Source: a virus
Virus record (IMG/VR): IMGVR_UViG_3300046660_000510
Span: 10,927 to 74,926 of that record
Reading direction: 5' to 3' (one strand)
DNA: 64,000 bases
Part shown: one piece after another, positions 2,416 through 45,252 of the stretch
How the letters are laid out: each line of letters opens with the position of its first letter
Numbering within the stretch: position 1 is the first letter of the stretch
Notes under the pieces: generated by a model
What the model saw: the letters and a program-made list of their open reading frames with translations, nothing else
What the model was told of the DNA's origin: nothing
Databases searched by the model: none
Translations under genes and position numbers: made by a program

Positions 2416-3233
2416 CCGACGAGCCGACTCTGGCCACGTTGACCAACCAACTGGCCGAGATGAAATCCGAACTTGCCATGCTTCGCATCTCCAGCAGCCT
2501 GCGAACCTGCCTGGTCCCGGCCTGCCTGCGCCAGTACGACAGCACTACCCACATGCTCGGCCGGCCCCCGGTACGTCCTGAGTGGTCCGGGCAGGGCTGG
2601 CACAAGGTCACCCGCGGTGTCGCCAACGGCGACCTCTGCCCCGACCACGTCGACATCGTCACCGCGCACCTGCCCCGCACCATCGACCTGCCCAACGGCC
2701 GGTGGACCGTGCACTGCGCGTGCGGCTGGGAGACGACCCCGCAGGCCTGGGGCGGTCTTCTGCGCCCGCTGTGGGAGCAGCACCTCCTCACCGCCATGGG
2801 CACGCTGCCAGAGCCTCCAGCGCACGATGAGACGCTCGAGCGGCTGCCGCTGGCCCACCACACCGAGGCCACGCTCACCGAGTTGTACGACGCCCTCGAC
2901 GACACCGAGTACGACCGCCGGGAGACCCGCGAAGCGGCGCAGGCCATGTTCCGCGCCTGGGACTGGCACCGGAACACCCTCGGCGGCGTATCCCGCGCCG
3001 TAGTGGCCGTGTGCAACATGATGCGGACGTCGGCCAACTTCCTGGACCGCTGCGACTGGACGGCAGACCGGATCGACGCCTACCTGTGGGCCGTCCTCAT
3101 CGGCTGGCACGACGACACCCTCCAGGAGGTCGCGGCCAAGCACCGGTGGAACGAGCACCGCGTGAAGTACGTACGCGAGATGCGCGCCCTCCTCGCCCCC
3201 ATCACCGACCCGCAGCAGCCGAAGGAGGACTGA
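2412..3233 (+). CDS. hypothetical phage protein
   Basis: GTGA overlap, typical high-GC codon use. Confidence 0.75.
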   Translation: MTDEPTLATLTNQLAEMKSELAMLRISSSLRTCLVPACLRQYDSTTHMLGRPPVRPEWSGQGWHKVTRGVANGDLCPDHVDIVTAHLPRTIDLPNGRWTVHCACGWETTPQAWGGLLRPLWEQHLLTAMGTLPEPPAHDETLERLPLAHHTEATLTELYDALDDTEYDRRETREAAQAMFRAWDWHRNTLGGVSRAVVAVCNMMRTSANFLDRCDWTADRIDAYLWAVLIGWHDDTLQEVAAKHRWNEHRVKYVREMRALLAPITDPQQPKED

Positions 3234-3234
3234 C

Positions 3235-4059
3235 GTGGGAGCAGCACTGCACCTTGCGCACGTGCACCAGCCGAGCCCGCCGAAGCGCCGGCCCAAGCGG
3301 AAGGGAGGCGGCGACGGAGGGAAGTTCTCCGAGTACGCGCAACGCATCTACCAGGACGACCGGGCGACCAGTGAGACCCGCAGCCTCCTTCTGGCCATCG
3401 CCTACGTCATCACGATGCAGCGCACCGACGACCCGAAGGAGCAGTGGCGCAACCTCCGCAAGGCGCTGGGCCGCAGCGAGAAGCACCGGTACACGGACTT
3501 CCTGCGCGATCTGGTCGAGCACGACCGGCCCCGCTACATACCGCCGGAGGATCGGCCCGGCGGCTACGACCCGTCCAAGCGGCTCTGTGTCGGCCCGCGT
3601 CTCCGCCCGTTCAAGGAGCGCCCCTACAAGGCGGAGCAGATGTCCCTGCCCGCCCGCGTCGAGCAGACCAAGCGGGACGCTGAGGACTTCCGCAACACCG
3701 ACAACGTGTGCGGCGCCCCCGGCAAGGACCGCGTCCTCGAGAAGCTGCCCGCCACCGGATGGTACCGGTGGCACTGGTTCTGCCAACGGCACCGCGACCA
3801 CGCCCAGCGGGTGAAGGAGCAGGTGAAGGCACAGAACGCGGCCGCGCCCGACCCCATTCCGAACGCGGGCGGGCTGATGCCTTGCTACTTCGAAGCGGAC
3901 TGGGTGCGCCTGTACCGGCACTACACGTGGGACACCTGGGAGCCGCCCGTGTACGGCGTCCGCGCCGACGACTGGCCCATCCCCGGCAAGCAGCCCGTTC
4001 CGCAGCGCGCCCGGCTCAGCCTGGTCATTGGCGGAGGGCTGGAGGATCCGGATGAGTGA
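3235..4059 (+). CDS. hypothetical phage protein
   Basis: RBS GGAGG, coupled to upstream gene. Confidence 0.75.
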   Translation: MGAALHLAHVHQPSPPKRRPKRKGGGDGGKFSEYAQRIYQDDRATSETRSLLLAIAYVITMQRTDDPKEQWRNLRKALGRSEKHRYTDFLRDLVEHDRPRYIPPEDRPGGYDPSKRLCVGPRLRPFKERPYKAEQMSLPARVEQTKRDAEDFRNTDNVCGAPGKDRVLEKLPATGWYRWHWFCQRHRDHAQRVKEQVKAQNAAAPDPIPNAGGLMPCYFEADWVRLYRHYTWDTWEPPVYGVRADDWPIPGKQPVPQRARLSLVIGGGLEDPDE

Positions 4060-10399: not shown

Positions 10400-10962
10400 G
10401 ATGCGGCTCCGTACGGCTCGAGGACGGCCGCACCGGGCAGGTACAGCGGATGCCGCGGCTGGCCCGTCGACGTCTGCCCGAGGCACTGCAGGCGGACGCC
10501 GCGCGCCCGCAGGGTCTCCGCCACGTGGGTGCCACGTCCGTTGTGCTCGACACCGGCCGCACCCCACGCCGCGACCACTGTGCTCGCGCCCCCGGTGGCG
10601 CGCCGTATGAACGCGTCGTTCAACGGGCCGACCGGGTCCGGGTGGTGACGCAGCGCCCGCGGGTCGGTGGAGCACAGGCCGAACAGGTTCACCACCACCA
10701 GGCCCCCGGCACCCTCGCGGCGTGCGAAGGACGTGCACCGGCGGATCGTCGGGTCGTCGTCCATGGCGTCCGCTGTGCTCGGGTTGAGCATGACGAATAC
10801 GGCCGGCTTCACCGTCGGGTCCCAGATCCGCGTCAGCAGCAACCGGTAGGTGCGGGCCGGGCTGTCGAACACGGCGGCCGCGATACCCCCGGCCAGGTCC
10901 TGCTTCTGCTCCACGTGCACGGACAACTCGGTATCCGACGGCAGCAAGGTCAGAACGCTCAC
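10396..10962 (-). CDS. DUF1643 family protein
   Basis: YRLLLTRIW...FVMLNPSTAD..DDPTIRRC...NLF...AAWG...GQPRHPLY. Confidence 0.9.
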   Translation of the reverse strand: MSVLTLLPSDTELSVHVEQKQDLAGGIAAAVFDSPARTYRLLLTRIWDPTVKPAVFVMLNPSTADAMDDDPTIRRCTSFARREGAGGLVVVNLFGLCSTDPRALRHHPDPVGPLNDAFIRRATGGASTVVAAWGAAGVEHNGRGTHVAETLRARGVRLQCLGQTSTGQPRHPLYLPGAAVLEPYGAAS

Positions 10963-28882: not shown

Positions 28883-29302
28883 TCAGTGCTCCCGGGTCCC
28901 GCCCACCTCGTCGTCCGCGGGATGCGCGGCCGCAACCAGACGAAGCGAACGCCCCACCGTCGCGCCCATCGCCTCGAACCCGGCATCCTGCAACTGGCCC
29001 TGGAGACGCGTCAGCTCATCCCGATAGAACCTCGGAGACGCCGCGTACTGGGCCGCCTGCCACACCACCGCCGCCGCCCGATCCCAGATCTCCTGCACCA
29101 GCACCGGATCCGCGTCCGGGAAGAGGTCCATCGGCAACTTCCGAGGCGTACCAGCCGTCTTCAACTGGCCCGCCGCCATCAACCCGGACAGGTACTGAGC
29201 CGTCGACGCGTGACGGCCCCCGCACACAAAATCCGCAGCCGACGGCGGCACCTGCTCCTCGGACGCTCCGGCAGCGTGCTTGGGGAGAGAGGGAGTGGTC
29301 AT
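28883..29302 (-). CDS. hypothetical protein
   Basis: ATGA overlap, GGAGG RBS. Confidence 0.7.
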   Translation of the reverse strand: MTTPSLPKHAAGASEEQVPPSAADFVCGGRHASTAQYLSGLMAAGQLKTAGTPRKLPMDLFPDADPVLVQEIWDRAAAVVWQAAQYAASPRFYRDELTRLQGQLQDAGFEAMGATVGRSLRLVAAAHPADDEVGGTREH

Positions 29303-30186
29303 GCGGCAGCCTCCAGCGGCGTGGCAGGGAACAGGGAACGAACATCGACGACCCGCGCAAGGCCGGCTTCCATCTCAGCGAGCAGCAAATCCAGCTGCCC
29401 GGGCACATCCACGAACCGGGCCCGCAACGGCGGCCGCCGCTCCCCCCTCCGCACCACGGGGGCCACCTCCTCCGTCACAGGCAGGCGGGCCAGGAGACGC
29501 TCGAACTCCACCGCCCACAACAGCAACTGGCCGTTCGGCTCGACCGTGTGGGTCTTCACCCCCGACGGGCACGCCGGCACCGTGCCGTCATCCGCGACCA
29601 CCAGGTCGGCGTCGACCAGACCGCGTTCCACCGCCGCGGTGAGGAGCTCCATCCGCGACGCCGTCCGCGACAAGCCCATGAGCGTGACGATTGCCGACCG
29701 CTGCCAGCCCGCCGTCCGCACATCCATCCGCGCCGCGGCCGCCACCTCATACGGATCCGTGTGCGCCGCCAGCGCCCGCAGCACCGCCAACTTCTGCACA
29801 GTCCGCAACTGACGGTCCGGCGCCGGTGCTGTCACCTCGTGCCGCGTCTTCACGAACGCCCGATGCCGCTCCAGGGCAGTCATCCCACCGAGGATCGCGT
29901 ACGGCTCCGCCAGCTTCCCGCCCACCGTCACCGACGACCCGTACGCCAGACACTGCAGCATCACCGGACAGCCCACACACACCTCGACCGCCGCCGCCTC
30001 ACGGGCACGCCGCTCGTGCTGCTCCTCCCCACCATCCACATCCGGGGCCTGCCACGCCCCCACCGGCAGAGCGTTGTCGCCGGCAGCCACAGCCGGGTTG
30101 TCCGGGTCGGGAGCGCAGCCCCGGTACCGGTAGTGGGAATGCTCGGTCAGCTGCTGCTGGGCGGTCGTCGGGTCCATCGTCTTCAT
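29299..30186 (-). CDS. WhiB-like protein with C-terminal HTH-like extension
   Basis: RGC...AAVEVCVGCPVMLQCLAY...AILGGMTALER. Confidence 0.8.
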   Translation of the reverse strand: MKTMDPTTAQQQLTEHSHYRYRGCAPDPDNPAVAAGDNALPVGAWQAPDVDGGEEQHERRAREAAAVEVCVGCPVMLQCLAYGSSVTVGGKLAEPYAILGGMTALERHRAFVKTRHEVTAPAPDRQLRTVQKLAVLRALAAHTDPYEVAAAARMDVRTAGWQRSAIVTLMGLSRTASRMELLTAAVERGLVDADLVVADDGTVPACPSGVKTHTVEPNGQLLLWAVEFERLLARLPVTEEVAPVVRRGERRPPLRARFVDVPGQLDLLLAEMEAGLARVVDVRSLFPATPLEAAA

Positions 30187-30876: not shown

Positions 30877-31929
30877 TCAGGCGGCGGAACTGATCTCGTC
30901 CGCGCCATTCATCGGGATACCGAACCCGGCAGCGACAACGTGCTGGGCCAGCAAGCAGGGGACGGCGTTCCCGATCTGTTCGAGCTGCTTGGTGCGGCTC
31001 CCCCGCCAGGCGTGATCAGCAGGGAAGGACTGGAGGGCGGCGGCGTCCTGGACGGACAGGCGGATCGTGTCCCGGCGACCTCCCCGATAGGCAGGCAGAT
31101 CCTCCGCAGCCACCATGCGGGTGCACTCGATCCAGCGGCCCGCATCCCGCTCCCCGTACAACGTCGCCCGGGCGCCGGATCCACCGACGCACGAAGGGTC
31201 GGGCCCACCGGCCGCCGTACCGACCGCGACCGTCAGCGCCGGACGGGCCGTCATGCCCCAGCCGATCGCGTCGGCCATGGACACCCACGGCAGGAGACCA
31301 AAAGCCTCCTGGACCTCGGTGACACCCTTCCGGTAGCGCTGGTGGGTCGGCTCCGGAAGCCGTGCCTCGCCGTTCAAGGAGGCCACGAGAAACGCCCGCG
31401 CACGGGTCTGGGGGACGCCGTACTCCTCGGCGGACAGCCTGCCCGTCACGACGCTGTAGCCCTCCGCACGGAGGAGCTCCGCGAACGCCTCCCACACCGG
31501 GAGCACAGTGGGCACCTGCTCCAGCATCACCGTCCCGTACGGGCGCCCCGCATCCATTGCTTCCAGGGCCCAACGCAGCGGCTCCAGCACCAGGCCCGTC
31601 CGCTCATCGTCGAACTCCTTCAGCGCCGGGGCGATGCTCTGCCGGGCGGCCAGCCGCTCCGAGAGGGCGAGGACCGTGTCCAGCGCCGCGCGGCCCCGGC
31701 CCTTGCCCCCGACCGAGAACGGCTGACACGGAGGCGAGCCGATTACGTCCGTCGCCTCCGGGAAGTCGGACGGGCCGAAGTCCCGGACATCACCTTCCAC
31801 AGTCGCCAGGCCGACCGCGCGGCGCGTCTCGCACGCCGCGTGATCCCGCTCGATACCGACCACCTCCAGGCCGAGCCGGGTAGCCCCGACGTCCCAACCA
31901 CCGGGGCCGGCGAACAAGTCGACGATCAC
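30877..31929 (-). CDS. DNA (cytosine-5)-methyltransferase
   Basis: DLFAGPGG (I), SPPCQPFS (IV), EQV (VI), QTRARAF (VIII), LQSFP (IX), IGNAV (X). Confidence 0.92.
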   Translation of the reverse strand: MIVDLFAGPGGWDVGATRLGLEVVGIERDHAACETRRAVGLATVEGDVRDFGPSDFPEATDVIGSPPCQPFSVGGKGRGRAALDTVLALSERLAARQSIAPALKEFDDERTGLVLEPLRWALEAMDAGRPYGTVMLEQVPTVLPVWEAFAELLRAEGYSVVTGRLSAEEYGVPQTRARAFLVASLNGEARLPEPTHQRYRKGVTEVQEAFGLLPWVSMADAIGWGMTARPALTVAVGTAAGGPDPSCVGGSGARATLYGERDAGRWIECTRMVAAEDLPAYRGGRRDTIRLSVQDAAALQSFPADHAWRGSRTKQLEQIGNAVPCLLAQHVVAAGFGIPMNGADEISSAA

Positions 31930-33179
31930 GCCGCCACCTGCCACTCCATCATCGGCACACCCGAAACGGCGGACACCACGTGAGCGGCCAGCAGCGGCGG
32001 AACGGCATTGCCTATCTGCTCGAACTGCTTCGTCTTCGTCCCCTGCCACGGATAGTCGGCGGGAAAGGACTGCAACACGGCGGCCTCGGCCTGCGTGATG
32101 CGGACCGTCTCCGGACTGGCGAACTGCGACTCCCCCTTGGCGGACCGGTCGCGGTGACCGGGCGGGGCGATCCGGTCGGTGGCACACACCGTGGTCGCGG
32201 GGCGCTGCTGGACCCACTCGATCCTGGCGGAGTTGTTTCCGAACGCCATCGTCGGGGCGGGCTCGTCTCCTGCACGGATCGCCGCGTTCGGCTGGTTGCC
32301 ATTCCGCAGGACCCACGACACGTCGTTGCAGCGGGCCCCCAAAAACAGCGTCCCGGCCGGCTCGTCCAGCTCGCGGACAGCGGCGTTCTTCTGCGTGCCG
32401 TTGCGCAGCGCCCACGACCGGGCCTTCTCCGTCAGGCACCATGACGGGCCGTCCGCCGGAAACTCGTTCCCGCCAGGCGTCTTCCGCTCGCCGCGCGTAT
32501 TGACGAACAGACCGCCATCCCAGCCGAGCGCTTCAGCCATGGAAACCCAGCGGGCCCGGCCCGGCCCGAACAGACCGGCATCCTCAGCGCGTTCGGCGTG
32601 CGTGGGCTCGGGCGCGGTCACAGACCGCACCCGGGAGGCGATCAGGATGGCCCGGCGACGGGTCTGCGGTACCCCGTAGTCGGCGGCGTTCAGGATGCCG
32701 ACCCACACCGAGTAGCCCCAGCCACGGAGTGTCTCGGCGTACTGCTTCCACAACGGCAGCACGTCGGGCACCTCTTCCATGCAGACCCACTCGGGCCGCA
32801 GGTCGAACAGCCACCGCATCGGCTCGGCGGCGAGAATGCTCCGCTGGTCCTTGCACGCCGCCTTCAGCTCTGACCGGGTGTCACGGCCATACGCGAGGTC
32901 GTGGACGGCCTGGTGAACAAGCGGCTGGTCCGCCAAACCGAGCCCCTTCCCGGCACGCGACCACGCCTGGCACGGGGGAGACCAGATCTGCTTCTTCGCC
33001 CGACCCTTGAACGGCGCGGTCGGGTACTGGGCGACGTCGCACTGGACAGTCAGATGGCCTGCGACAGCGCGCGTCTTGCACGCTGCGGTGTCCCATTCCA
33101 GTCCCACGTCACGGAGGCCCAGGAGGCGCAAGCCTTCCGACCAGCCTCCAGGACCCGCGAACCCGTCGAGGATCGTCAT
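31926..33179 (-). CDS. DNA (cytosine-5)-methyltransferase
   Basis: DGFAGPGG, SPPCQAWS, EEV, QTRRRAI, LQSFP, IGNAV. Confidence 0.92.
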   Translation of the reverse strand: MTILDGFAGPGGWSEGLRLLGLRDVGLEWDTAACKTRAVAGHLTVQCDVAQYPTAPFKGRAKKQIWSPPCQAWSRAGKGLGLADQPLVHQAVHDLAYGRDTRSELKAACKDQRSILAAEPMRWLFDLRPEWVCMEEVPDVLPLWKQYAETLRGWGYSVWVGILNAADYGVPQTRRRAILIASRVRSVTAPEPTHAERAEDAGLFGPGRARWVSMAEALGWDGGLFVNTRGERKTPGGNEFPADGPSWCLTEKARSWALRNGTQKNAAVRELDEPAGTLFLGARCNDVSWVLRNGNQPNAAIRAGDEPAPTMAFGNNSARIEWVQQRPATTVCATDRIAPPGHRDRSAKGESQFASPETVRITQAEAAVLQSFPADYPWQGTKTKQFEQIGNAVPPLLAAHVVSAVSGVPMMEWQVAA

Positions 33180-34105
33180 CAGGCGGCCTGCCCTTCACCG
33201 GCGTCGGCCTGGACGGCCTGCTGCTTCAACTGGGCGATCCGGCGCGTCAGGAGGTCCTCGACACGCACGTCCATCTCGCCGACCTTCACCGTCTCGTCCA
33301 GCAGACCGTGCTTCCGGGCGTCGGCAAGGTTCTGCTCACACGACAGGCGGTTCGACCAACCTGCATTGATCTTCCCCTTCAGTGCCTCCAGGGTCGTTCC
33401 GCCCGCCTGCTCCTGGCGGCGCGCGTCCTCACGCTGCTCCGCCGGCCCGGTCTGCTCCTGCTCCGGCGGGACGGTGTCCTCGGTGGGCTGCGATCCCGGC
33501 TCGGGCCGCACCGGGGCATCGTCCGGCTCCGGAAGCGGCGCCGCAACCTTCTCCCACTGCTCCGGCGGATGCGCGGCAGAGAAGTTGACCACCGGGGCCG
33601 GGGAGCCGTCGTTGTACAGGGACAGCCCGAACGCGTCCCCCAAGTGGGTAGCGGCCCGCTTGAACGCCTGAGACGACGCGGTCTTCATCCCCATGTCGTG
33701 CGCGTCGGCCAGGTTCGGCAGGTTGTTGCCCGCCCCGGCCGCTTCGCCGTCCCAGTGCCCCAGCTCCCGTCCCTGCACGTCCTTCACGATCAGACGGACT
33801 TGCGCCCGGTACACGACCGTCCACTTGGAACGGTTCCCGTTGGGAGTCTCGATCTCCCTGACCAGAGCCAGCTCGCGGTTCTCGGTGTCGTAGCCGGCGA
33901 ACCCGAACACGCGGAGCAGGTACCGCTTGATGTCCCAGGCCTGCATGTGCGCGAAGCCCTTGTCGTCCTTACCGACACGCTTGGGGTCGACGGCCCGGTG
34001 CAGCAGCCGAAGCTGAGGCGCGGTGAAGCGGCTGACCTGGTTTTGGGTGTGCGGGGTGGGGCCCTCCGCCGTCGTGCTGGCGGGGGCCTCGGTGGCCGTG
34101 GCCAT
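33179..34105 (-). CDS. Rad52/Rad22-family (Sak) single-strand annealing protein
   Basis: GFAHMQAWDIKRYLLRVFGFAGYD...KTASSQAFKRAATHLGDAFGLSLY. Confidence 0.88.
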   Translation of the reverse strand: MATATEAPASTTAEGPTPHTQNQVSRFTAPQLRLLHRAVDPKRVGKDDKGFAHMQAWDIKRYLLRVFGFAGYDTENRELALVREIETPNGNRSKWTVVYRAQVRLIVKDVQGRELGHWDGEAAGAGNNLPNLADAHDMGMKTASSQAFKRAATHLGDAFGLSLYNDGSPAPVVNFSAAHPPEQWEKVAAPLPEPDDAPVRPEPGSQPTEDTVPPEQEQTGPAEQREDARRQEQAGGTTLEALKGKINAGWSNRLSCEQNLADARKHGLLDETVKVGEMDVRVEDLLTRRIAQLKQQAVQADAGEGQAA

Positions 34106-37471: not shown

Positions 37472-38335
37472 ATGGACCCCGAGGAACTGCTCAACGACTG
37501 GCTCGCCACCAGCGCCCTGCGGCCCTCCACCCGCGCCGAATACCACCGCGAAGTGAGCTCCTTCCTCACCTGGTGCGCCCGCCGGCCCCGGCCCGTCGAC
37601 CCCATCGCGGCCCGACCCGCCGACATCGCCCAGTGGTCCCACGACACCTACCTCCGTGAACTCCTCGACGGCCGGCCCTTCGACGGACCCGACGCCCTCG
37701 GCTACCTCGCCGACCACCACCCCGACGCCGCCCGCACCCACGACCGCCGCATCACCGCCCTCACCGGCTACTACGACGCCGCCACCGCCCGCCGCATCAT
37801 CACCATCCCTCCCGACCTGAAAGTCCTGCGCTCCGGTGTCCCCCGGCCGCCCGGCGCCAAGAACCGGTTGACGCCCCGCGAACGCGCCGTCCTCCTCGCC
37901 TGCACCGGCGCCTGGGGACCCACCCGCTCGAAGCACTGGGAACGCGACCAACTGTGCGTCTACCTCCTCCTCGAGGGCCTCCGCCCGGCGCAGATCGTCC
38001 GCATCGACCGACGCCACCTCTACCCCCAGCCCGACGGCTCCTGGGACGTGCGCGCCCCCGACGACGCAGAGAACGTCGGCAAAAAAATCACCCTGGACCC
38101 GCTCACCGGCGCGGCATTGAAGGCCTACCTGGCCGTACGCCTCGAGCCAGCCGACCCCGGCGAGCACACCCTCATCCTCTCCAGCCGAGGAACCGCCACC
38201 TTCTCCCGCTGGCCCAACAAGCTCATAGGGCAGATCACCGCCACGCACCCGCTGCTCGCCGAACGCGACCCCGCCATCACCGCGGACGCCGTCGCCCACA
38301 CGGGCCTGTGGGACACCCCCGGACAGGGCGACTAG
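37472..38335 (+). CDS. tyrosine-recombinase-like protein, apparently catalytically incomplete
   Basis: core-binding N-terminus (LRPSTRAEY...FLTW); LEGLRP retained, HxLR replaced by DAVAH, ends before catalytic Tyr. Confidence 0.75.
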   Translation: MDPEELLNDWLATSALRPSTRAEYHREVSSFLTWCARRPRPVDPIAARPADIAQWSHDTYLRELLDGRPFDGPDALGYLADHHPDAARTHDRRITALTGYYDAATARRIITIPPDLKVLRSGVPRPPGAKNRLTPRERAVLLACTGAWGPTRSKHWERDQLCVYLLLEGLRPAQIVRIDRRHLYPQPDGSWDVRAPDDAENVGKKITLDPLTGAALKAYLAVRLEPADPGEHTLILSSRGTATFSRWPNKLIGQITATHPLLAERDPAITADAVAHTGLWDTPGQGD

Positions 38336-39393
38336 GTCAGGTCGACCGTGGAGTTGTCGTCCCAGCCGTCCTCGATCTGGAAGTAGCCGTTCATCGACCT
38401 CGAGTGCCGGGCCCACCCGCCCTGGTCGGCGATGACGATGGCGTCCTTGCCCTGCTTGCGGGCGGTGGAGGCGTGGCCGATGCGCAGGCTGTGGCCGGTC
38501 CAGGCGAGGTCGACGCCGGCGCGGGTGCTGATGCGTTTGATGGCGCGGGTGATGGAGTCGGGGACCATGCCGCCGGTAACGCGGCCGGAGCGGTGGATGC
38601 CGACGAACGCGGGCGCGTCCGGGGCCAGCCAGCGCGGGTCGGCCTCGGCGGCCATACGCTCGCGGTACGCCTTCCACGCTTGGACGGGGCAGATCTCAGG
38701 ATCCTTCTGGTATCGGATCTTGGCGTCGCGGACGGAGTGCTTGGTCTTCCCGGTGAGGATGGAGATGACCAGGCCGCGCGGGTGCAGGGTGACGTCTCCC
38801 GCGAGCAGGCCGGCGGGGTCCTGGGCGCGGGCGGCGTAGTGGAAGCCGGTGAGGATGAGCGCCTTGTCGCGTGCGCCCGCCAATGTGTCGGGGCAGGCCC
38901 GTACGACGCGGTAGAGGTCGGGGACTTGGGCGGTGGATGCTTTGCCGCGGCCGCGGCGTTCCTTGTTCTGCAGCAGCTTGACGGTCAGGCCGTCGAGGGC
39001 GGCGCGCGCTTCGGCTTGGTCGTCGCGGCTGACGGTGACGTCTCGGTCGCGGAGTTCGACGACGGTTCCGGCGAGGATGGTGGAGGCCGAACTGGGGGCG
39101 TATCCGGTGCCGTTGGTCTGGCCTTGGCGGAGCATCCAGGCGACGTAGGCGACGAGCGCGCCGCGGGAGCCCTCGAGAAGTGGCAGGCCCTGGGAGCTGG
39201 TGAAGCGTTCCCACACGCGCCAGCTCTTGGTGTAGGTGTCGGTGGTGTTCTCGGGGGTGATCTCTCGTGCGACGGCGTCCGCGAGGTCTTCGGCCTGGGC
39301 GAGCCGGTGGGCAGTGTCGATACCGTGCCGGGCGGCCCACTTCTGGATGAGGGCCGCGCGTTCGGGGCTGGTGGTGGTGTCGAGTTCGGTCAC
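38332..39393 (-). CDS. Cre-like tyrosine recombinase
   Basis: RDKALILTGF..AAR, KT, GHSLRIG, GGW, ..GY catalytic set. Confidence 0.9.
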   Translation of the reverse strand: MTELDTTTSPERAALIQKWAARHGIDTAHRLAQAEDLADAVAREITPENTTDTYTKSWRVWERFTSSQGLPLLEGSRGALVAYVAWMLRQGQTNGTGYAPSSASTILAGTVVELRDRDVTVSRDDQAEARAALDGLTVKLLQNKERRGRGKASTAQVPDLYRVVRACPDTLAGARDKALILTGFHYAARAQDPAGLLAGDVTLHPRGLVISILTGKTKHSVRDAKIRYQKDPEICPVQAWKAYRERMAAEADPRWLAPDAPAFVGIHRSGRVTGGMVPDSITRAIKRISTRAGVDLAWTGHSLRIGHASTARKQGKDAIVIADQGGWARHSRSMNGYFQIEDGWDDNSTVDLT

Positions 39394-39764
39394 GGCCGCC
39401 AGTCCTCGCGGTAGCCGGGCCGGTCCGCGTAGGGAAGGGCGGCGTGCGCCACGGCGACGCGCAGCCCTTCCACCCGGCCGACGTCCACCATATCGGCGAA
39501 CGAGCCGAGAGCCTCCTCGGACTCGGCGTACTCGGTAAGCAGCTTCCGCTTGGCGTCAAGCTCGCGCAGTCCGAAGCCGACGTCGCGGTATGGAGTCGCC
39601 CTGGCGGCTTCGAGGTGCAGTACGCACGAGTCGTACTCGTCGTAGGCGGCGGGGTCCTGGCCCTCGTAGTTGATGCACGGACCGTCATGACCGTCGCGGT
39701 AGCGGAGGAGCGCGGCCCGGTCCTCGGCAAGTTGATCTCCGAGCCACTGCGCGATGTCTTCCAC
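39390..39764 (-). CDS. DUF6221 family protein
   Basis: WL..QLAED...RELDAKRKLL...ALPYADRPGYREDWRP. Confidence 0.85.
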   Translation of the reverse strand: MEDIAQWLGDQLAEDRAALLRYRDGHDGPCINYEGQDPAAYDEYDSCVLHLEAARATPYRDVGFGLRELDAKRKLLTEYAESEEALGSFADMVDVGRVEGLRVAVAHAALPYADRPGYREDWRP

Positions 39765-40461: not shown

Positions 40462-40623
40462 ATGTGAGCTTATCGGGAACCATGCGAGGCGTTCCGGTCC
40501 AACGACCCGTCAGCGTGCCGCCGCGTTCGAGCCGTTCGATTATTGCCCCAGATCGATCCTAAGCTCGGGCCGTTCCGAGCGTCCGGGCACTTCGGCTCAG
40601 TGACGCACGTTCGCGTGCACCTA

Positions 40624-40661
40624 TTGACGCATGCGTTAAACCCTGCGACCATTAACGCATG
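40624..40661 (+). promoter_or_regulatory. promoter (TTGACG -35) with inverted repeat CATGCGTTAA-N12-TTAACGCATG overlapping ATG
   Basis: perfect 10-bp IR; probable leaderless, autoregulated transcript. Confidence 0.65.
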
Positions 40662-41048
40662 TGGAAATCCGATGGCCGGAGGGGACGCCCCGTCGTGGGC
40701 CCCAAGGTAGAGACCCGGCTCCCTGAATCCGACCTCCAGAAGGTCGACGCCTTCGCGGCGCAGCACGACATGTCCCGGGCGGAAGCCCTCCGCCAACTGA
40801 CCAGCGACGGTCTACTCCTTGCTGACGCCAGTACCCGAGAGACCATCGCACCGGACGCCGTTCAGAGCCAGAAGATCGCGTCTGGCGCCGTCGAGTCCGG
40901 GAAGGTCGACCCGAACGACCCTCTGTTCGTACACACCCTGGTCGTGTGGGCATTGAAGAAGGTCGGCATGGGCCAGGAGGAAGCCGACCAGTACGCGACC
41001 GCCCATCAGCAGCACGCGGTAGACGCCTACCGCACCACCGAGAAGTGA
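40659..41048 (+). CDS. ribbon-helix-helix (CopG-like) protein
   Basis: GRPVVGPKVETRLPESDLQKVDAFAAQHDMSRAEALRQL. Confidence 0.8.
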   Translation: MWKSDGRRGRPVVGPKVETRLPESDLQKVDAFAAQHDMSRAEALRQLTSDGLLLADASTRETIAPDAVQSQKIASGAVESGKVDPNDPLFVHTLVVWALKKVGMGQEEADQYATAHQQHAVDAYRTTEK

Positions 41049-41059
41049 GGACACCGACC

Positions 41060-41281
41060 GTGAGCAAGCCCATCAGCCTCACCACGATCTCGCTGTCCGA
41101 CGCGCACTGGGTGGACCTTCTGACCACCGCGCGGCTCCACGCCTATCGAGAGGTTCGGGAGATGCCCAACGTGACAACCGCGCAGTGTCAGCAGATCGTG
41201 GCGGCGGCCGTCGCTGGGGTTCGCACGCAGATCGAAGAGTGGGCCGCACAGCAGACCACCGACAGCGCCACCGAGCAGTGA
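41060..41281 (+). CDS. cassette ORF 1 (73 aa)
   Basis: starts and ends within linker copies. Confidence 0.7.
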   Translation: MSKPISLTTISLSDAHWVDLLTTARLHAYREVREMPNVTTAQCQQIVAAAVAGVRTQIEEWAAQQTTDSATEQ

Positions 41282-41292
41282 GGGCACCGGCC

Positions 41293-41427
41293 ATGGAGCA
41301 GGATGAACTGGGCGCGCAGCAGGAGGAATTGCTCCGGGACCTGGACGACGTCCTGGACGTAGAGGCAGGTCTGGAGGACCTGCTCCGCAGGCTCGGCCCG
41401 CCCGCCGACCGAACCACCGAGAAGTGA
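41293..41427 (+). CDS. cassette ORF 2 (44 aa, very acidic)
   Basis: MEQDELGAQQEELLRDLDDVLDVEAGLEDLL...ADRTTEK. Confidence 0.7.
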   Translation: MEQDELGAQQEELLRDLDDVLDVEAGLEDLLRRLGPPADRTTEK

Positions 41428-41438
41428 GGACACCGACC

Positions 41439-41645
41439 ATGGCGGACGCGCAACCGCAGCCCACCTCCGGCGGGAGCATCCAGATCGGAGAACCGTCGCA
41501 GCTTCAGACTTTCGCGGTCCGCACTCAGGCGGACTGGGCCGACGTCGAGATCGAGCACTATCAGCAGACCGGCGAAACGCCTCTCGCTCGACTGCACCGC
41601 GAGAACCTCGACGCGCTCCACGCCGACCGCACCACCGAGAAGTGA
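41439..41645 (+). CDS. cassette ORF 3 (68 aa)
   Basis: ends ADRTTEK within linker. Confidence 0.7.
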   Translation: MADAQPQPTSGGSIQIGEPSQLQTFAVRTQADWADVEIEHYQQTGETPLARLHRENLDALHADRTTEK

Positions 41646-41656
41646 GGAGCACGACC

Positions 41657-41833
41657 GTGAGTGCTGCCGCCTACTCCACCTTCGCCACTGTTTTCGGCTT
41701 GATCGCATTCGGACACGGACTGCTCGCCTGGACCAACTGGCGGCGAGGGAAGCGTGGCGCCTCCTTCAACTACCTAGCCGCTGCTGCCGTGTTCTTCGCC
41801 GGGGTGGCCTCTTGGTGCGCCATGCTCGGGTAG
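41657..41833 (+). CDS. cassette ORF 4 (58 aa, two TM)
   Basis: starts in linker; two hydrophobic helices. Confidence 0.7.
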   Translation: MSAAAYSTFATVFGLIAFGHGLLAWTNWRRGKRGASFNYLAAAAVFFAGVASWCAMLG

Positions 41834-41858
41834 TCATGGGAGCGCAGCACGAACGCAA

Positions 41859-41893
41859 CGGTGCCCCGGCTGAGGAAAGCAGCCGGGGCACCG
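41859..41893. terminator. 14-bp stem terminator between convergent genes
   Basis: CGGTGCCCCGGCTG-AGGAAAG-CAGCCGGGGCACCG. Confidence 0.75.
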
Positions 41894-42473: not shown

Positions 42474-44561
42474 TTACGCGCCGACTGCCACCCACGGACC
42501 GGCGATATCCGACCCCACATTCGACGACGGGGTGATCGACGACGGCAACGCGGTCAGTCCGGTCCCGTTCTTCGCAAACCGGTACGCCGACGCCGCCAGG
42601 CCCAGGTTCGCAGCCGTGTCGACGCCGGTCCAGCCGGACGCGCGGGTCAGTGTCGGTGTGACCGAGGCGTTGAACAGCAGCGCGACCCAGTAGAACGATC
42701 CGGCCGACAGTGCCGTGGACGTGATGGTGGTGGTCTTCAGCGTGGCCGAGGAGAAGCCGGTGTCGACGTTGGTGGACGCCAGCAGCGTGCCAGCCGAGTT
42801 GTACAGACCGACCCAGTTCTGGTTGGTGGTGGCCCCGGATCCGGTGTTCGCCACCCACCAGTACAGTTTCGTGGCGTTCAGGGCGGCGGCGATGTTCACG
42901 CGGACCAGGTACAGCGTTCCGGCGGTCAGCTGCGTCGAGTTGACGGCCAGCGCCGGGTCGTAGCACCAGGCGGCCACCCCGTGGGCGGCCGGGAAGTTCT
43001 GTCCCAGTGCGTTGCCGGTGACGTTCAGGCTGCCGCTGATGGTGCCGCCCGCGGCCGGGAGGGCGCCGGTGATGCGGGCGTCGTCACCCGCGGCCACCGT
43101 GCCCGCTCCAGTGCCGACAGTCAGGGCCGGGGTGCCGTGGGTGTGGTCGCCCCGGGCGTAGGTAGCAGCGGATCCGGCCGCCGATGACTGTCCGAACGCT
43201 GTCTCAGCCGTGACGCTGCCGGACGCCGAGGGCGGTGCGGGCGGGCTGGTCCAGGTACCGGGTACCCCGCCCGCAGTGCACAGCCACCACACCCCGGCGG
43301 AGTCCTGGACGGCGTCCCCGGTGGCCCAGGTGCCCGTGGTGGGTGCTCCGGTGGTGGCGCGGCGCCCGCACAGCCTGATGTTGGTGAGGCCGTTCTTGGC
43401 GCCGAGGCTGGCTACGCCGGTGCCGGAGTCGATGTCGTGGACGTCGTCGAACGCGCCGGTGCCGAACTGAACGCGGCCAATCAGGTGCGGGCCCGTGGCT
43501 TCCCAGCGCATGACGTTGGTCTGGGTACCGGTGAAGTCGGGGTTCGTCCACTTGGAGACGAAGACGTCGAGGCCGGCGATCTCCAGGTCGAGGCCGCTGC
43601 CGGTGACGCGGAACCGGTAGGCGCCGGTATCGTCCGCGCGCTGCACGGTCAGGTTGTGGCCGTCGACGGTGACGTCGCCGGTGAAGGCCGCCCCGGAGAG
43701 TGGGGCGAGGGCGGCCAGGGCTGCGGGGAGTCCGCTGACCTGGGACTGGGATACGGACACCGGGTCGCTCCCGGCCGCCGCATGCGAGGAGGCGTGGGCC
43801 GTGGGGGTGCGGGAGTTGGTGGTGGTCGGGTCGTCGGAGCGCAGCGCGATGGTGGATCCTGCACCGGCGGCTCCGAGCGGCGGCTGCGAGCCGGTGGCGC
43901 CCGTGTCGCCCTTCGGGCCGGTCGCACCGGTGTCGCCCGTGGGGCCTTGGGCGCCGGTCGCGCCGGCGGGTCCTTGCGGGCCCTGGTCCCCGGTGTCCCC
44001 TTTAGGTCCCTGGGCGCCGGTTGCTCCGGCCGGCCCCGTGGCTCCTGCGGGTCCCTGCACTCCCGCCTCTCCCGGGTCTCCGGGGTCGCCCTTCGGTCCC
44101 TGGGCGCCAGTCGCTCCAGTCGCTCCCGTGGGGCCGGTAGCTCCGGCCGGTCCGGGCTCGCCCTGGGGGCCGGTGGAGCCGGTCTGCCCGGTGCCGAGGT
44201 AGACGACGGTTCCCTGCCCGGTCTGAGTGCTGGACAAGTCCGCGCGGATCGCCCCCACCCAGTACGTGCCGGTCTCCGGGACGACGATGTAGGTGAGGAT
44301 CGGCGAGCCGTCGCGGGCGCGCCCCTCCTGGATGGCCCACAGGGTGTCGCCCGACTGGGATTCGATGAGCGTGTTGGCGGTCAGGGTGACCGTCCAGGTG
44401 CCGTCGCTGCCCGCCTGAATGGGGACGTCCTTGACCAGCTCGCCCGACACGGAGGCGACGTAGCCGACCGCGGGCTGCCCGGTCACGTCGACCAGGGTCG
44501 CCTTCATTTCCACCCGCTGCGGAGCGGACGCCCCGATCAGCTTCCCGTTCACGACAGTCAT
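42474..44561 (-). CDS. collagen-repeat tail fibre-like protein
   Basis: long G-X-Y run, [12 protein letters not shown] motif, beta-rich C-terminus; AGGAG RBS. Confidence 0.8.
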
Positions 44562-44571
44562 CGACGCACTC

Positions 44572-45252
44572 CTAGCTTCGGCGGTTGAGCAGGCCGAGCG
44601 GGAGCAGCGCGGACTGGCTGTCGCTCGGGGACGGTTGCTGGCTGGGGCTGGGAGACGGAGAAGGATCCGGGCTGGCGGTGCTGGTCTGCGTGCACCGGTA
44701 GCGCGGATGGTCCGGGTCGAAGTTGTCGGCGGGGACGCACTGGTAGGTGTTGCCGTCCTGGTCGGTGTACGTCCACTCCGACGGCGGCGCCCCGCTCTTG
44801 CCGTCGCTGCCGTCCTTGCCGTCCGAGCCCGCCGCACCATCAGCGCCGGCCTGCCCTGCCGGACCGGTGGGACCGGGCACGGTGGAGTCGGCGCCCGGCG
44901 CCCCGGAAGGTCCCGGTGAACCGCTGGGTCCTGGGCTGCCGTCACTGCCGTCCTTGCCTGGCTTGCCGGATTCCCCCGACGAGCCCGACGGCCCGGACGG
45001 GCCGATCAACCCGGCCGCCCCGGTCTCCCCCCGTGGCCCGGCGACCGGGGTCCCTCCCATGTTCTCTACTTGCTGGGTGAGCAGGGCGACATCGCGGTGC
45101 GCGCTATCCAGTTGCCTGGACATGATCAGGAATCCGGTGACCACGCCGGCCAACGCGCAGGCGGCAAGGAGCATCGCCGCAGCAGCGTTCAGGTTGCCGC
45201 GGCTGCGCCGCTTACGTGTTTCCGCCCGGCTGCCAGGCCTCGGGGGGTTCAC
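44572..45252 (-). CDS. membrane-anchored collagen-like protein in lysis cassette
   Basis: N-terminal TM, coiled coil, G-X-Y repeats, Cys pair. Confidence 0.75.

Follow-up and report, generated by a model that had tools for sequence, protein, structure and literature searches.

A 64-kb stretch of viral DNA (positions 10,927 to 74,926 of the 74.9-kb IMG/VR virus record IMGVR_UViG_3300046660_000510; hereafter the window) carries, at 40,624-41,893, an array of small genes in which every junction is built from a copy of one short sequence. This sequence, which we call the linker, ends one gene and supplies the ribosome-binding site and start codon of the next. It recurs at one syntenic locus across a family of Streptomyces phage-plasmids, the genes that it joins differ from array to array, and the identity between shared genes breaks off inside linkers. 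In the reading that we favor, to which we assign a probability of about 70%, the linker is a translational-coupling junction that doubles as micro-homology for in-register cassette exchange, and the array is a hyperplastic accessory-gene operon of pZL12-like Streptomyces phage-plasmids. No published description of the linker was found, and a search of the literature for its sequence returned nothing relevant.

An array of small genes joined by one linker

The array comprises a head gene and four cassettes, all on the + strand. The head gene, open reading frame (ORF) 1 (40659-41048, 129 amino acids (aa)), has a ribbon-helix-helix (RHH) N-terminus (residues ~4-52) fused to a cassette-like C-terminal domain, and matches the PHROGs family phrog_4738 ("transcriptional repressor", 6.9e-10), with Pfam RHH_1 reaching only 0.12. 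It is followed by orf2 (41060-41281, 73 aa), for which no relatives were found, orf3 (41293-41427, 44 aa), which is acidic with an isoelectric point of 4.05, orf4 (41439-41645, 68 aa), an ORFan that found only itself among 5.8 billion proteins, and the tail cassette orf5 (41657-41833, 58 aa), which ends without a linker-encoded C-terminus and is hydrophobic and basic, a composition consistent with two membrane segments. GC content by codon position fits real coding for these ORFs (GC3 0.78-0.86, GC2 0.32-0.60). A preliminary description of this DNA had listed the same genes, an RHH gene followed by ORFs of 73, 44, 68 and 58 aa that include a tiny acidic protein and a two-transmembrane protein, and our results agree with it.

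That description had also reported one 38-mer at every junction, and four copies are indeed present. Linker 1 (41025-41062), which holds the last codons of ORF1, TGA, GAGG, a spacer and GTG, has 2 mismatches to the consensus; linkers 2 (41258-41295), 3 (41404-41441) and 4 (41622-41659) have 6, 1 and 4, linker 2 being the most diverged, and start-to-start spacing is 233, 146 and 218 nt. At each of the four junctions the linker provides the C-terminal residues and stop of one gene (AYRTTEK, TDSATEQ, ADRTTEK and ADRTTEK, in order), the TGA overlaps GAGG, and a 9-nt spacer leads to ATG or GTG, as had been claimed for the ends and starts of these genes. The repeat is real and non-random: a 32-mer with ≤3 mismatches gave 3 matches against 0.00 expected by chance, and a 14-mer core with ≤2 mismatches gave 5, four of them the linkers, against 0.47 expected.

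An operator-like inverted repeat of two ACGCATG-type half-palindromes (40623-40668; 17-nt arms, 82% complementary) occupies the divergent intergenic region and overlaps the ORF1 start. At the other end of the array, a perfect 14-bp hairpin (41859-41893) between convergent genes is likely a bidirectional terminator. A strict sigma-70 and T-tail scan of this region found neither promoter nor terminator, with no promoter-like site inside the array or upstream of it. Therefore, of the promoter/operator and terminator proposed earlier, the palindrome and the hairpin stand, and the functional names are readings of them. The hairpin is common to another array, L075 (~3215-3250), in which a compensatory change keeps the stem (CGGCTG/CAGCCG in the window, CGCCTG/CAGGCG in L075).

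The linker occupies one locus in Streptomyces phage-plasmids

Exact scans with an 18-mer and a 20-mer, leaving out two chance matches, recovered 209 linker copies in 84 loci on viral contigs, in Streptomyces genomes and on soil or rhizosphere metagenome contigs, with up to 8 copies in the largest arrays (L026). In PLSDB, the linker occurs in 24 Streptomyces plasmids, mostly of 85-94 kb; among the 50,697 phages of INPHARED there was no match to the linker or to the window region. Where whole records were searched, all linker copies found formed one operon on one strand, and five whole elements contained no antisense copy elsewhere. Some records have linkers at two separate places, as with L037 and L045, both in pSLE1 (IMGVR_UViG_2872922060_000001).

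The genomic setting is shared as well. On the S. seoulensis plasmid, six genes, all annotated "hypothetical", are flanked by an integrase and a DUF6221 gene on one side and by tail-fibre and lysis genes on the other, as in the window, where the left flank holds a tyrosine integrase (38332-39393, - strand) and a DUF6221 gene (39390-39764, -), both syntenic with relatives, and the right flank a collagen-repeat tail-fibre gene (42474-44945, -) and then holin and lysis genes. Long collagen-like GxP/GxT repeats are present in the tail-fibre gene, which is conserved with CP075614.1 in its C-terminal part and differs in the middle. CP075614.1, although its tail fibre is related, has no linker array at this locus (L055, 47742-48887) but ~1.1 kb of unlike sequence in which a single 61-aa hydrophobic gene is annotated, and from this case the whole array is apparently replaceable.

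Linker arrays were found in pSLE1 (NZ_LN831788.1) of S. leeuwenhoekii and in further 85-94 kb Streptomyces records, many of them complete plasmids, from S. seoulensis, S. ambofaciens ATCC 23877, S. libani and S. tubercidicus. pSLE1 is highly similar and syntenic to the plasmid-phage pZL12 and has two integrase genes (PMC4487206). The window (69% G+C; record completeness 83%), whose sequence is present in rhizosphere metagenome runs, has genes for tail, lysis and tape-measure proteins together with two integrase-like genes, and so matches pSLE1 and pZL12, elements of ~85-94 kb and 69% G+C with phage structural genes and two integrase genes. Given the arrays in pSLE1 and the other 85-94 kb plasmids, its carrier is therefore, to judge by sequence, a metagenomic pZL12-like Streptomyces phage-plasmid. 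The carrier elements are viruses of ~90 kb in Streptomyces with a plasmid lifestyle. Linker arrays also occur on very large contigs (L016, L026 and L027; 394-464 kb) and on plasmids of 150-640 kb, which may represent relatives that are integrated or carried by other replicons.

Constraint on the linker acts on nucleotides

The linker consists of a near-invariant core, GAGAAGTGAGG, between GCCGACCGCNCCACC and ACACCGACC-ATG. The 11-nt core comprises the last two codons and TGA stop of one gene and the Shine-Dalgarno (SD) site of the next; cassettes begin at their 5' ends with ACACCGACC-ATG and end at their 3' ends with GCC-GAC-CGC-NNC-ACC. The geometry is fixed: the stop overlaps the SD site, 11 nt separate TGA from the start codon, and every gene is set one frame back relative to its predecessor. 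Across 117 distinct copies, conservation peaks from -4 to +22 nt around the G of GAGAAG and fades by ~16 nt upstream, and the same consensus emerged from 59 copies left out of fetching. Per-position conservation is 0.92-1.00 in the core and 0.6-0.9 in the non-coding spacer, also in linkers not used for fetching.

Codon choice bears on whether the DNA or the protein is constrained. All 67 Thr codons that precede GAG are ACC (cassette bodies use ACC at 0.65 and ACG at 0.23), the Arg codon is CGC in 48 of 52, and third-position C reaches 0.8-0.94 in the linker versus 0.53 in bodies, with first and second positions varying; the preceding codon is free in its first two bases (GCC, ACC, GAC, AAC, GTC and others). 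Judged by these counts, the constraint is on nucleotides and not on the peptide. The competing idea, that the C-terminal ADRxTEK peptide is a degradation, sorting or packaging tag which the DNA repeat merely reflects, draws on the many cassettes that end in ADRxTEK-like residues, including some terminal ones with no following gene; the linker-encoded tail is predicted to be disordered or of low confidence in two cassette models (f5 and f3), which is neutral. However, synonymous sites are more conserved than amino-acid-determining sites, residue x can be A, T, D, N, V, H or I, the tail is absent from families f11, f12 and f18 and from orf5, and the non-coding half of the linker is equally conserved, and we regard a peptide tag as very improbable.

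The two halves of the linker travel with their cassettes. Terminal cassettes often retain the upstream half and the core without ACACCGACC, and in three loci (L018, L020 and L031) the downstream half, with the core, precedes a cassette although the upstream gene has already ended, so that it is non-coding there. Linkers that share an array resemble one another no more closely than linkers from separate arrays do (p = 0.47), giving no sign of within-array homogenization, as expected for a freely exchanging pool.

Linkers have no inverted repeat or dyad symmetry and no conserved RNA or DNA structure; single-strand DNA folds gave z ~0 for three of the four window linkers (+ strand) with no shared hairpin, and a strict scan found no promoter-like hexamers in the linker. 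An extended SD site was rejected, its duplex energy with the 16S rRNA 3' end (-10.7 kcal/mol) being that of plain GGAGG. Predicted RNA accessibility at the linker is slightly raised (0.48 vs 0.38), making an unstructured ribosome-binding site a weak reason for the linker sequence. The exact sequence is therefore not accounted for by the usual requirements of translation. Fusion of cassettes by read-through or frameshifting was also rejected, because the next start codon is one frame back, 14 nt downstream of the T of TGA, and a slippery heptamer is absent.

These properties bear on the possibility that the linker is primarily a cis-regulatory site at which one trans-acting factor switches all cassettes together, exchange being a by-product. 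Candidates would be a translational repressor such as T4 RegA, an RNase processing site, a small-RNA target or a stoperator-like DNA site. Conservation of the core and of the non-coding spacer beyond SD need speaks for such a site, as does the retention of the downstream half where it is non-coding, and the start-associated sequence (SAS) repeats of Cluster K mycobacteriophages raise the same unexplained conservation question (PMC3203893). Nonetheless, no candidate factor co-varies with the linker, and the same linker accompanies head regulators from at least four families that are unrelated, which argues against the head regulator as the linker-binding factor. The linker is also unlike the operator palindrome, and its copies show neither an antisense counterpart elsewhere in the five whole elements nor conserved structure. 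We consider primary cis-regulation rather unlikely.

Two known repeats of actinobacteriophages are comparable. The 13-bp SAS, GGGATAGGAGCCC, which with its extended form (ESAS) characterizes Cluster K, is present in 11-19 copies genome-wide (Pope et al. 2011, PMC3203893); many SAS genes lie >50 bp from their upstream neighbour, and no shuffling role has been reported (PMC3203893). Like the SAS, the linker is an asymmetric repeat that includes the ribosome-binding site before start codons of varied gene families, in one orientation (GAGG 9 nt before ATG or GTG on the coding strand), and is conserved beyond rRNA pairing. It differs in its length (27-38 nt), in including the upstream stop and last codons and in its restriction to one operon, and the consensus GGGATAGGAGCCC scattered through the genome was not found. 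Stoperators of mycobacteriophage L5 and Streptomyces phage R4 are genome-wide repressor-binding sites that block RNA polymerase (PMC10276819). They too are short, asymmetric, one-orientation repeats at gene junctions of temperate actinophages, whereas the linker is restricted to one operon and unlike the local operator palindrome.

Cassette content is mosaic

The arrays encode 262 complete ORFs, which fall into 51 families and 64 singletons. With the linker-encoded tail removed, a phmmer comparison of the first 167 ORFs gave no cross-family match at E < 0.05. Cassette sizes range from tens of residues up to 299 aa, and their predicted character differs. Neighbours change between the 71 distinct arrays. 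For 35 of 39 recurrent families, two or more different neighbours were seen on one side; 72 of 76 family-family adjacencies turned up once only, and seven family pairs are present in both orders. The head position is held by at least four unrelated regulator-like families (Cys-rich f1, RHH f2, HTH_17 f4, and f8) with unchanged linker, some cassette families are always last in the array, and one family is present twice in the same array (L026). This mosaic fits a common cassette pool exchanged by general homologous recombination. Invariant gene content among relatives, or a linker confined to this locus with ORFs that were diverged tandem duplicates, would have spoken against the preliminary description; content varies among relatives, the linker occurs widely, and duplication is not detectable among the ORFs.

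The commonest head gene, family f1, occurs in 14 arrays and encodes ~100-120 aa (for example, L019:4813-5127 and L006:765-1100). It has no Pfam match, and its conserved CxCGCG...GHDK and CPxGCGYRG...H..H motifs suggest an undescribed family of zinc-binding regulators.

Homology between arrays breaks off inside linkers

One exchange concerns an 85-aa cassette of family f5 shared by L005 and L006. It is 99.3% identical over 293 nt, with 2 differences over this segment and 1 between the linkers, and the adjacent head genes are 70% identical. The identity starts at GAGAAG of the upstream linker and stops at CCGACC of the downstream linker, and the following start codons differ. Altogether, nine cassette pairs are at least 93% identical with at least one unrelated flank. 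Window orf5 provides a more distant case: its protein is 76% identical to that of the cassette which closes L075, behind unrelated cassettes, and the homology begins at the linker, spans the terminator hairpin and then stops. Judged by these alignments, single cassettes have moved between arrays with breakpoints inside linkers. The earlier claim that units can be gained or lost at the repeats is borne out as far as such moves go; that new arrangements are also expressed, as had been stated, we infer.

Metagenome contigs may add orf4 to these cases. Single contigs of run X4 align with the window over orf4 alone, between the core of linker 3 and the end of linker 4 (loose ends at 41421 and 41656). 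Both sides run into unlike sequence, the downstream side starting with an ORF that by eye resembles family f18, and these contigs are weak evidence for exchange of orf4 at linkers. Two further joints, with sides of 23-24 nt, were left out as too short. Loose ends at 41605/41638 in X5-X7 were rejected as variants, being merely linkers of other arrays, and a metagenome scan with an orf4-internal 23-mer gave no match.

A free-standing 99-aa cassette, the fourth in its array (L019:5444-5740), shares 72% identity with residues 56-129 of ORF1. ORF1 is a chimera of an RHH and a cassette-like domain, and cassette material has therefore also recombined into fusion proteins.

These data also address tandem duplication and divergence, by which linkers would be kept for translational coupling and no cassette would move between elements. 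Direct repeats at regular unit ends are what such a process would leave, and the family present twice in L026 is in keeping with it. Cassettes of such different size and character have no detectable similarity to one another, however, and near-identical cassettes between unrelated neighbours, with adjacent genes at 70% identity, already contradict it. We find this explanation hardly credible.

Neighbouring recombinases and the integron comparison

The tyrosine recombinases and Sak annealase that had been noted nearby are present. Besides the integrase in the left flank, a second tyrosine-recombinase-like gene (37472-38335, +) lies in the left context, and a Rad52/22-family single-strand annealing protein (Sak-like; PF04098, 1.9e-16) is encoded at 33179-34105 (-). 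The two recombinase-like genes are convergent and their 3' ends overlap by 4 nt; only 38332-39393 (-) reaches the Pfam Phage_integrase threshold. The backbone near the Rad52-like gene also encodes a 295-aa WhiB-domain protein (29299-30186, -; PF02467, 4.6e-06) and a DNA methyltransferase (31926-33179, -; phrog_116, 3.3e-54).

Neither enzyme class tracks the linker. The Rad52-like annealase is clearly present in only two of five complete relatives. The integrases that adjoin the arrays of the window and the S. seoulensis plasmid are 36.5% identical, and an integrase 87.5% identical to that of the window adjoins an array-less locus with a different insert. Therefore, no particular recombinase is implicated, and the mismatch between integrase and array argues against site-specific recombination by the neighbouring integrase.

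In integrons, one promoter drives promoterless, exchangeable cassettes beside a tyrosine recombinase gene, and attC inverted repeats fold into hairpins. The linker array resembles them in its adjacent tyrosine recombinase gene, and its cassettes would be promoterless and driven by one putative promoter. If it were a true integron analogue, with the neighbouring tyrosine recombinase or recombinases acting site-specifically at the linker core, the architecture of a recombinase gene transcribed away from the promoter of a promoterless array would be accounted for. Its cassette ends have no attC hairpins, however, the linker is without dyad symmetry or hairpin of any kind, and no dedicated IntI-type tyrosine recombinase appears to accompany the array, though a tyrosine integrase adjoins it; the integrase identities given above further oppose this view, which we judge to be highly improbable. 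The array is not an integron, and homologous rather than site-specific exchange fits best. The "integron-like logic" of the preliminary description is apt as an analogy and does not extend to hairpins or to a tie between linker and integrase.

Cassette proteins

Pfam and PHROGs searches with the window ORFs and 20 family representatives gave, besides ORF1, only HTH_17 in one head family and a weak Phd match, and orf2 to orf5 had no match to any family in either; the ESM Atlas gave nothing usable for the cassettes. An AlphaFold model of the common cassette f5 (mean predicted local distance difference test score, pLDDT, 77.5) has weak matches to winged-helix MarR/RosR-like proteins (E ~0.03), and f5 looks like a small winged-helix protein in this model. 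The f3 model (pLDDT 84) had no clear match in the PDB. Rough ratios of non-synonymous to synonymous polymorphism (pN/pS) of 0.1-0.7, a crude estimate from ungapped alignments, suggest that cassette proteins evolve fast under weak to moderate purifying selection. The proposal that the cargo resembles anti-defence or exclusion factors gained no support, family matches being almost absent and the one fold hint being of the winged-helix kind.

Discussion

In the mechanism that we propose, a head regulator gene would be followed by promoterless small-gene cassettes with standard ends, and the fixed stop/SD/start geometry would couple translation along one mRNA. The 27-38 nt of linker identity would serve as a site for homologous recombination by host RecA or a phage annealase. 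Whole cassettes could then be inserted, deleted or swapped in register between co-resident elements, and every new arrangement would still be translated.

The closest precedent is found in T4-type phages, whose hyperplastic regions contain promoter early stem-loop (PeSL) cassettes, repeats of a sigma-70 promoter and a terminator stem-loop for which mini-circles have been shown (PMC2839356, PMC4122927). As with PeSLs (Arbiol et al. 2010, Comeau et al. 2014), short conserved expression signals lie between small, mostly ORFan accessory genes, and recombination between repeats would here too shuffle, insert and delete genes with expression kept. The breakpoints of insertions, deletions and replacements lie in the repeats here too, and the linker has no promoter or stem-loop. 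PeSLs are transcriptional units of lytic myoviruses of Gram-negative hosts, whereas the linker joins genes at the level of translation, overlaps the end of the preceding coding sequence and belongs to a single operon of Streptomyces phage-plasmids.

The finding also touches on an older idea. In the modular theory of Susskind and Botstein, phages are proposed to exchange modules at short conserved sequences, or "linkers", that mark module boundaries. This boundary-sequence idea is discussed by Pope et al. 2011 (PMC3029335). In the Streptomyces elements, as in that model, homologous recombination at short conserved gene-boundary sequences would yield mosaics with intact genes, and a conserved boundary does lie between unrelated neighbours with the exchange points inside it. 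The difference is that one sequence is found here at essentially every junction of an operon, in dozens of elements. On the favored reading, the linker array works like the PeSLs of T4 and is a clean case of the boundary-sequence model.

Several points weigh against the exchange reading. Selection for exchangeability is second-order, and something more direct may hold the near-invariant core. SD pairing is no better than with GGAGG and the gain in accessibility is slight, which leaves the exact sequence unexplained by ordinary translation. The apparent conservation of the core is also raised in part by the use of a pattern to fetch loci and call linkers. CP075614.1, the relative with the closest integrase (87.5% aa identity), has no array. 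No recombination intermediate, circle or population-level indel was seen directly, and the metagenome contigs are short and of low depth, so that the variant context of orf4 comes from single contigs. Transcription and translation of the array are, moreover, deduced from its sequence.

A more speculative proposal, which we think unlikely, is that a dedicated trans-acting function, conserved in the phage-plasmid backbone or in Streptomyces, recognizes the 11-nt core; it could be a regulator, or a factor that recombines or anneals linkers specifically. Were this true, the operon would be a purpose-built platform for cassette exchange, a hairpin-free functional counterpart of the integron, and its cargo a fast-turnover pool of host-takeover or anti-defence genes.

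Illegitimate recombination has so far been the favored explanation for phage mosaics. If the exchange reading is right, one standard junction serves as both expression signal and exchange site in dozens of Streptomyces phage-plasmids, which offers a concrete and experimentally tractable case of the linker model of phage mosaicism with cultivable carriers (S. seoulensis KCTC 9819, whose plasmid NZ_CP032230.1 has its array at 79061-80775; S. ambofaciens ATCC 23877; and S. leeuwenhoekii with pSLE1). For polycistronic expression in Streptomyces, the junction would offer a scarless connector that is ready to use, and the arrays would amount to a pool of small ORFan genes, in more than 100 families, kept in exchange by selection.

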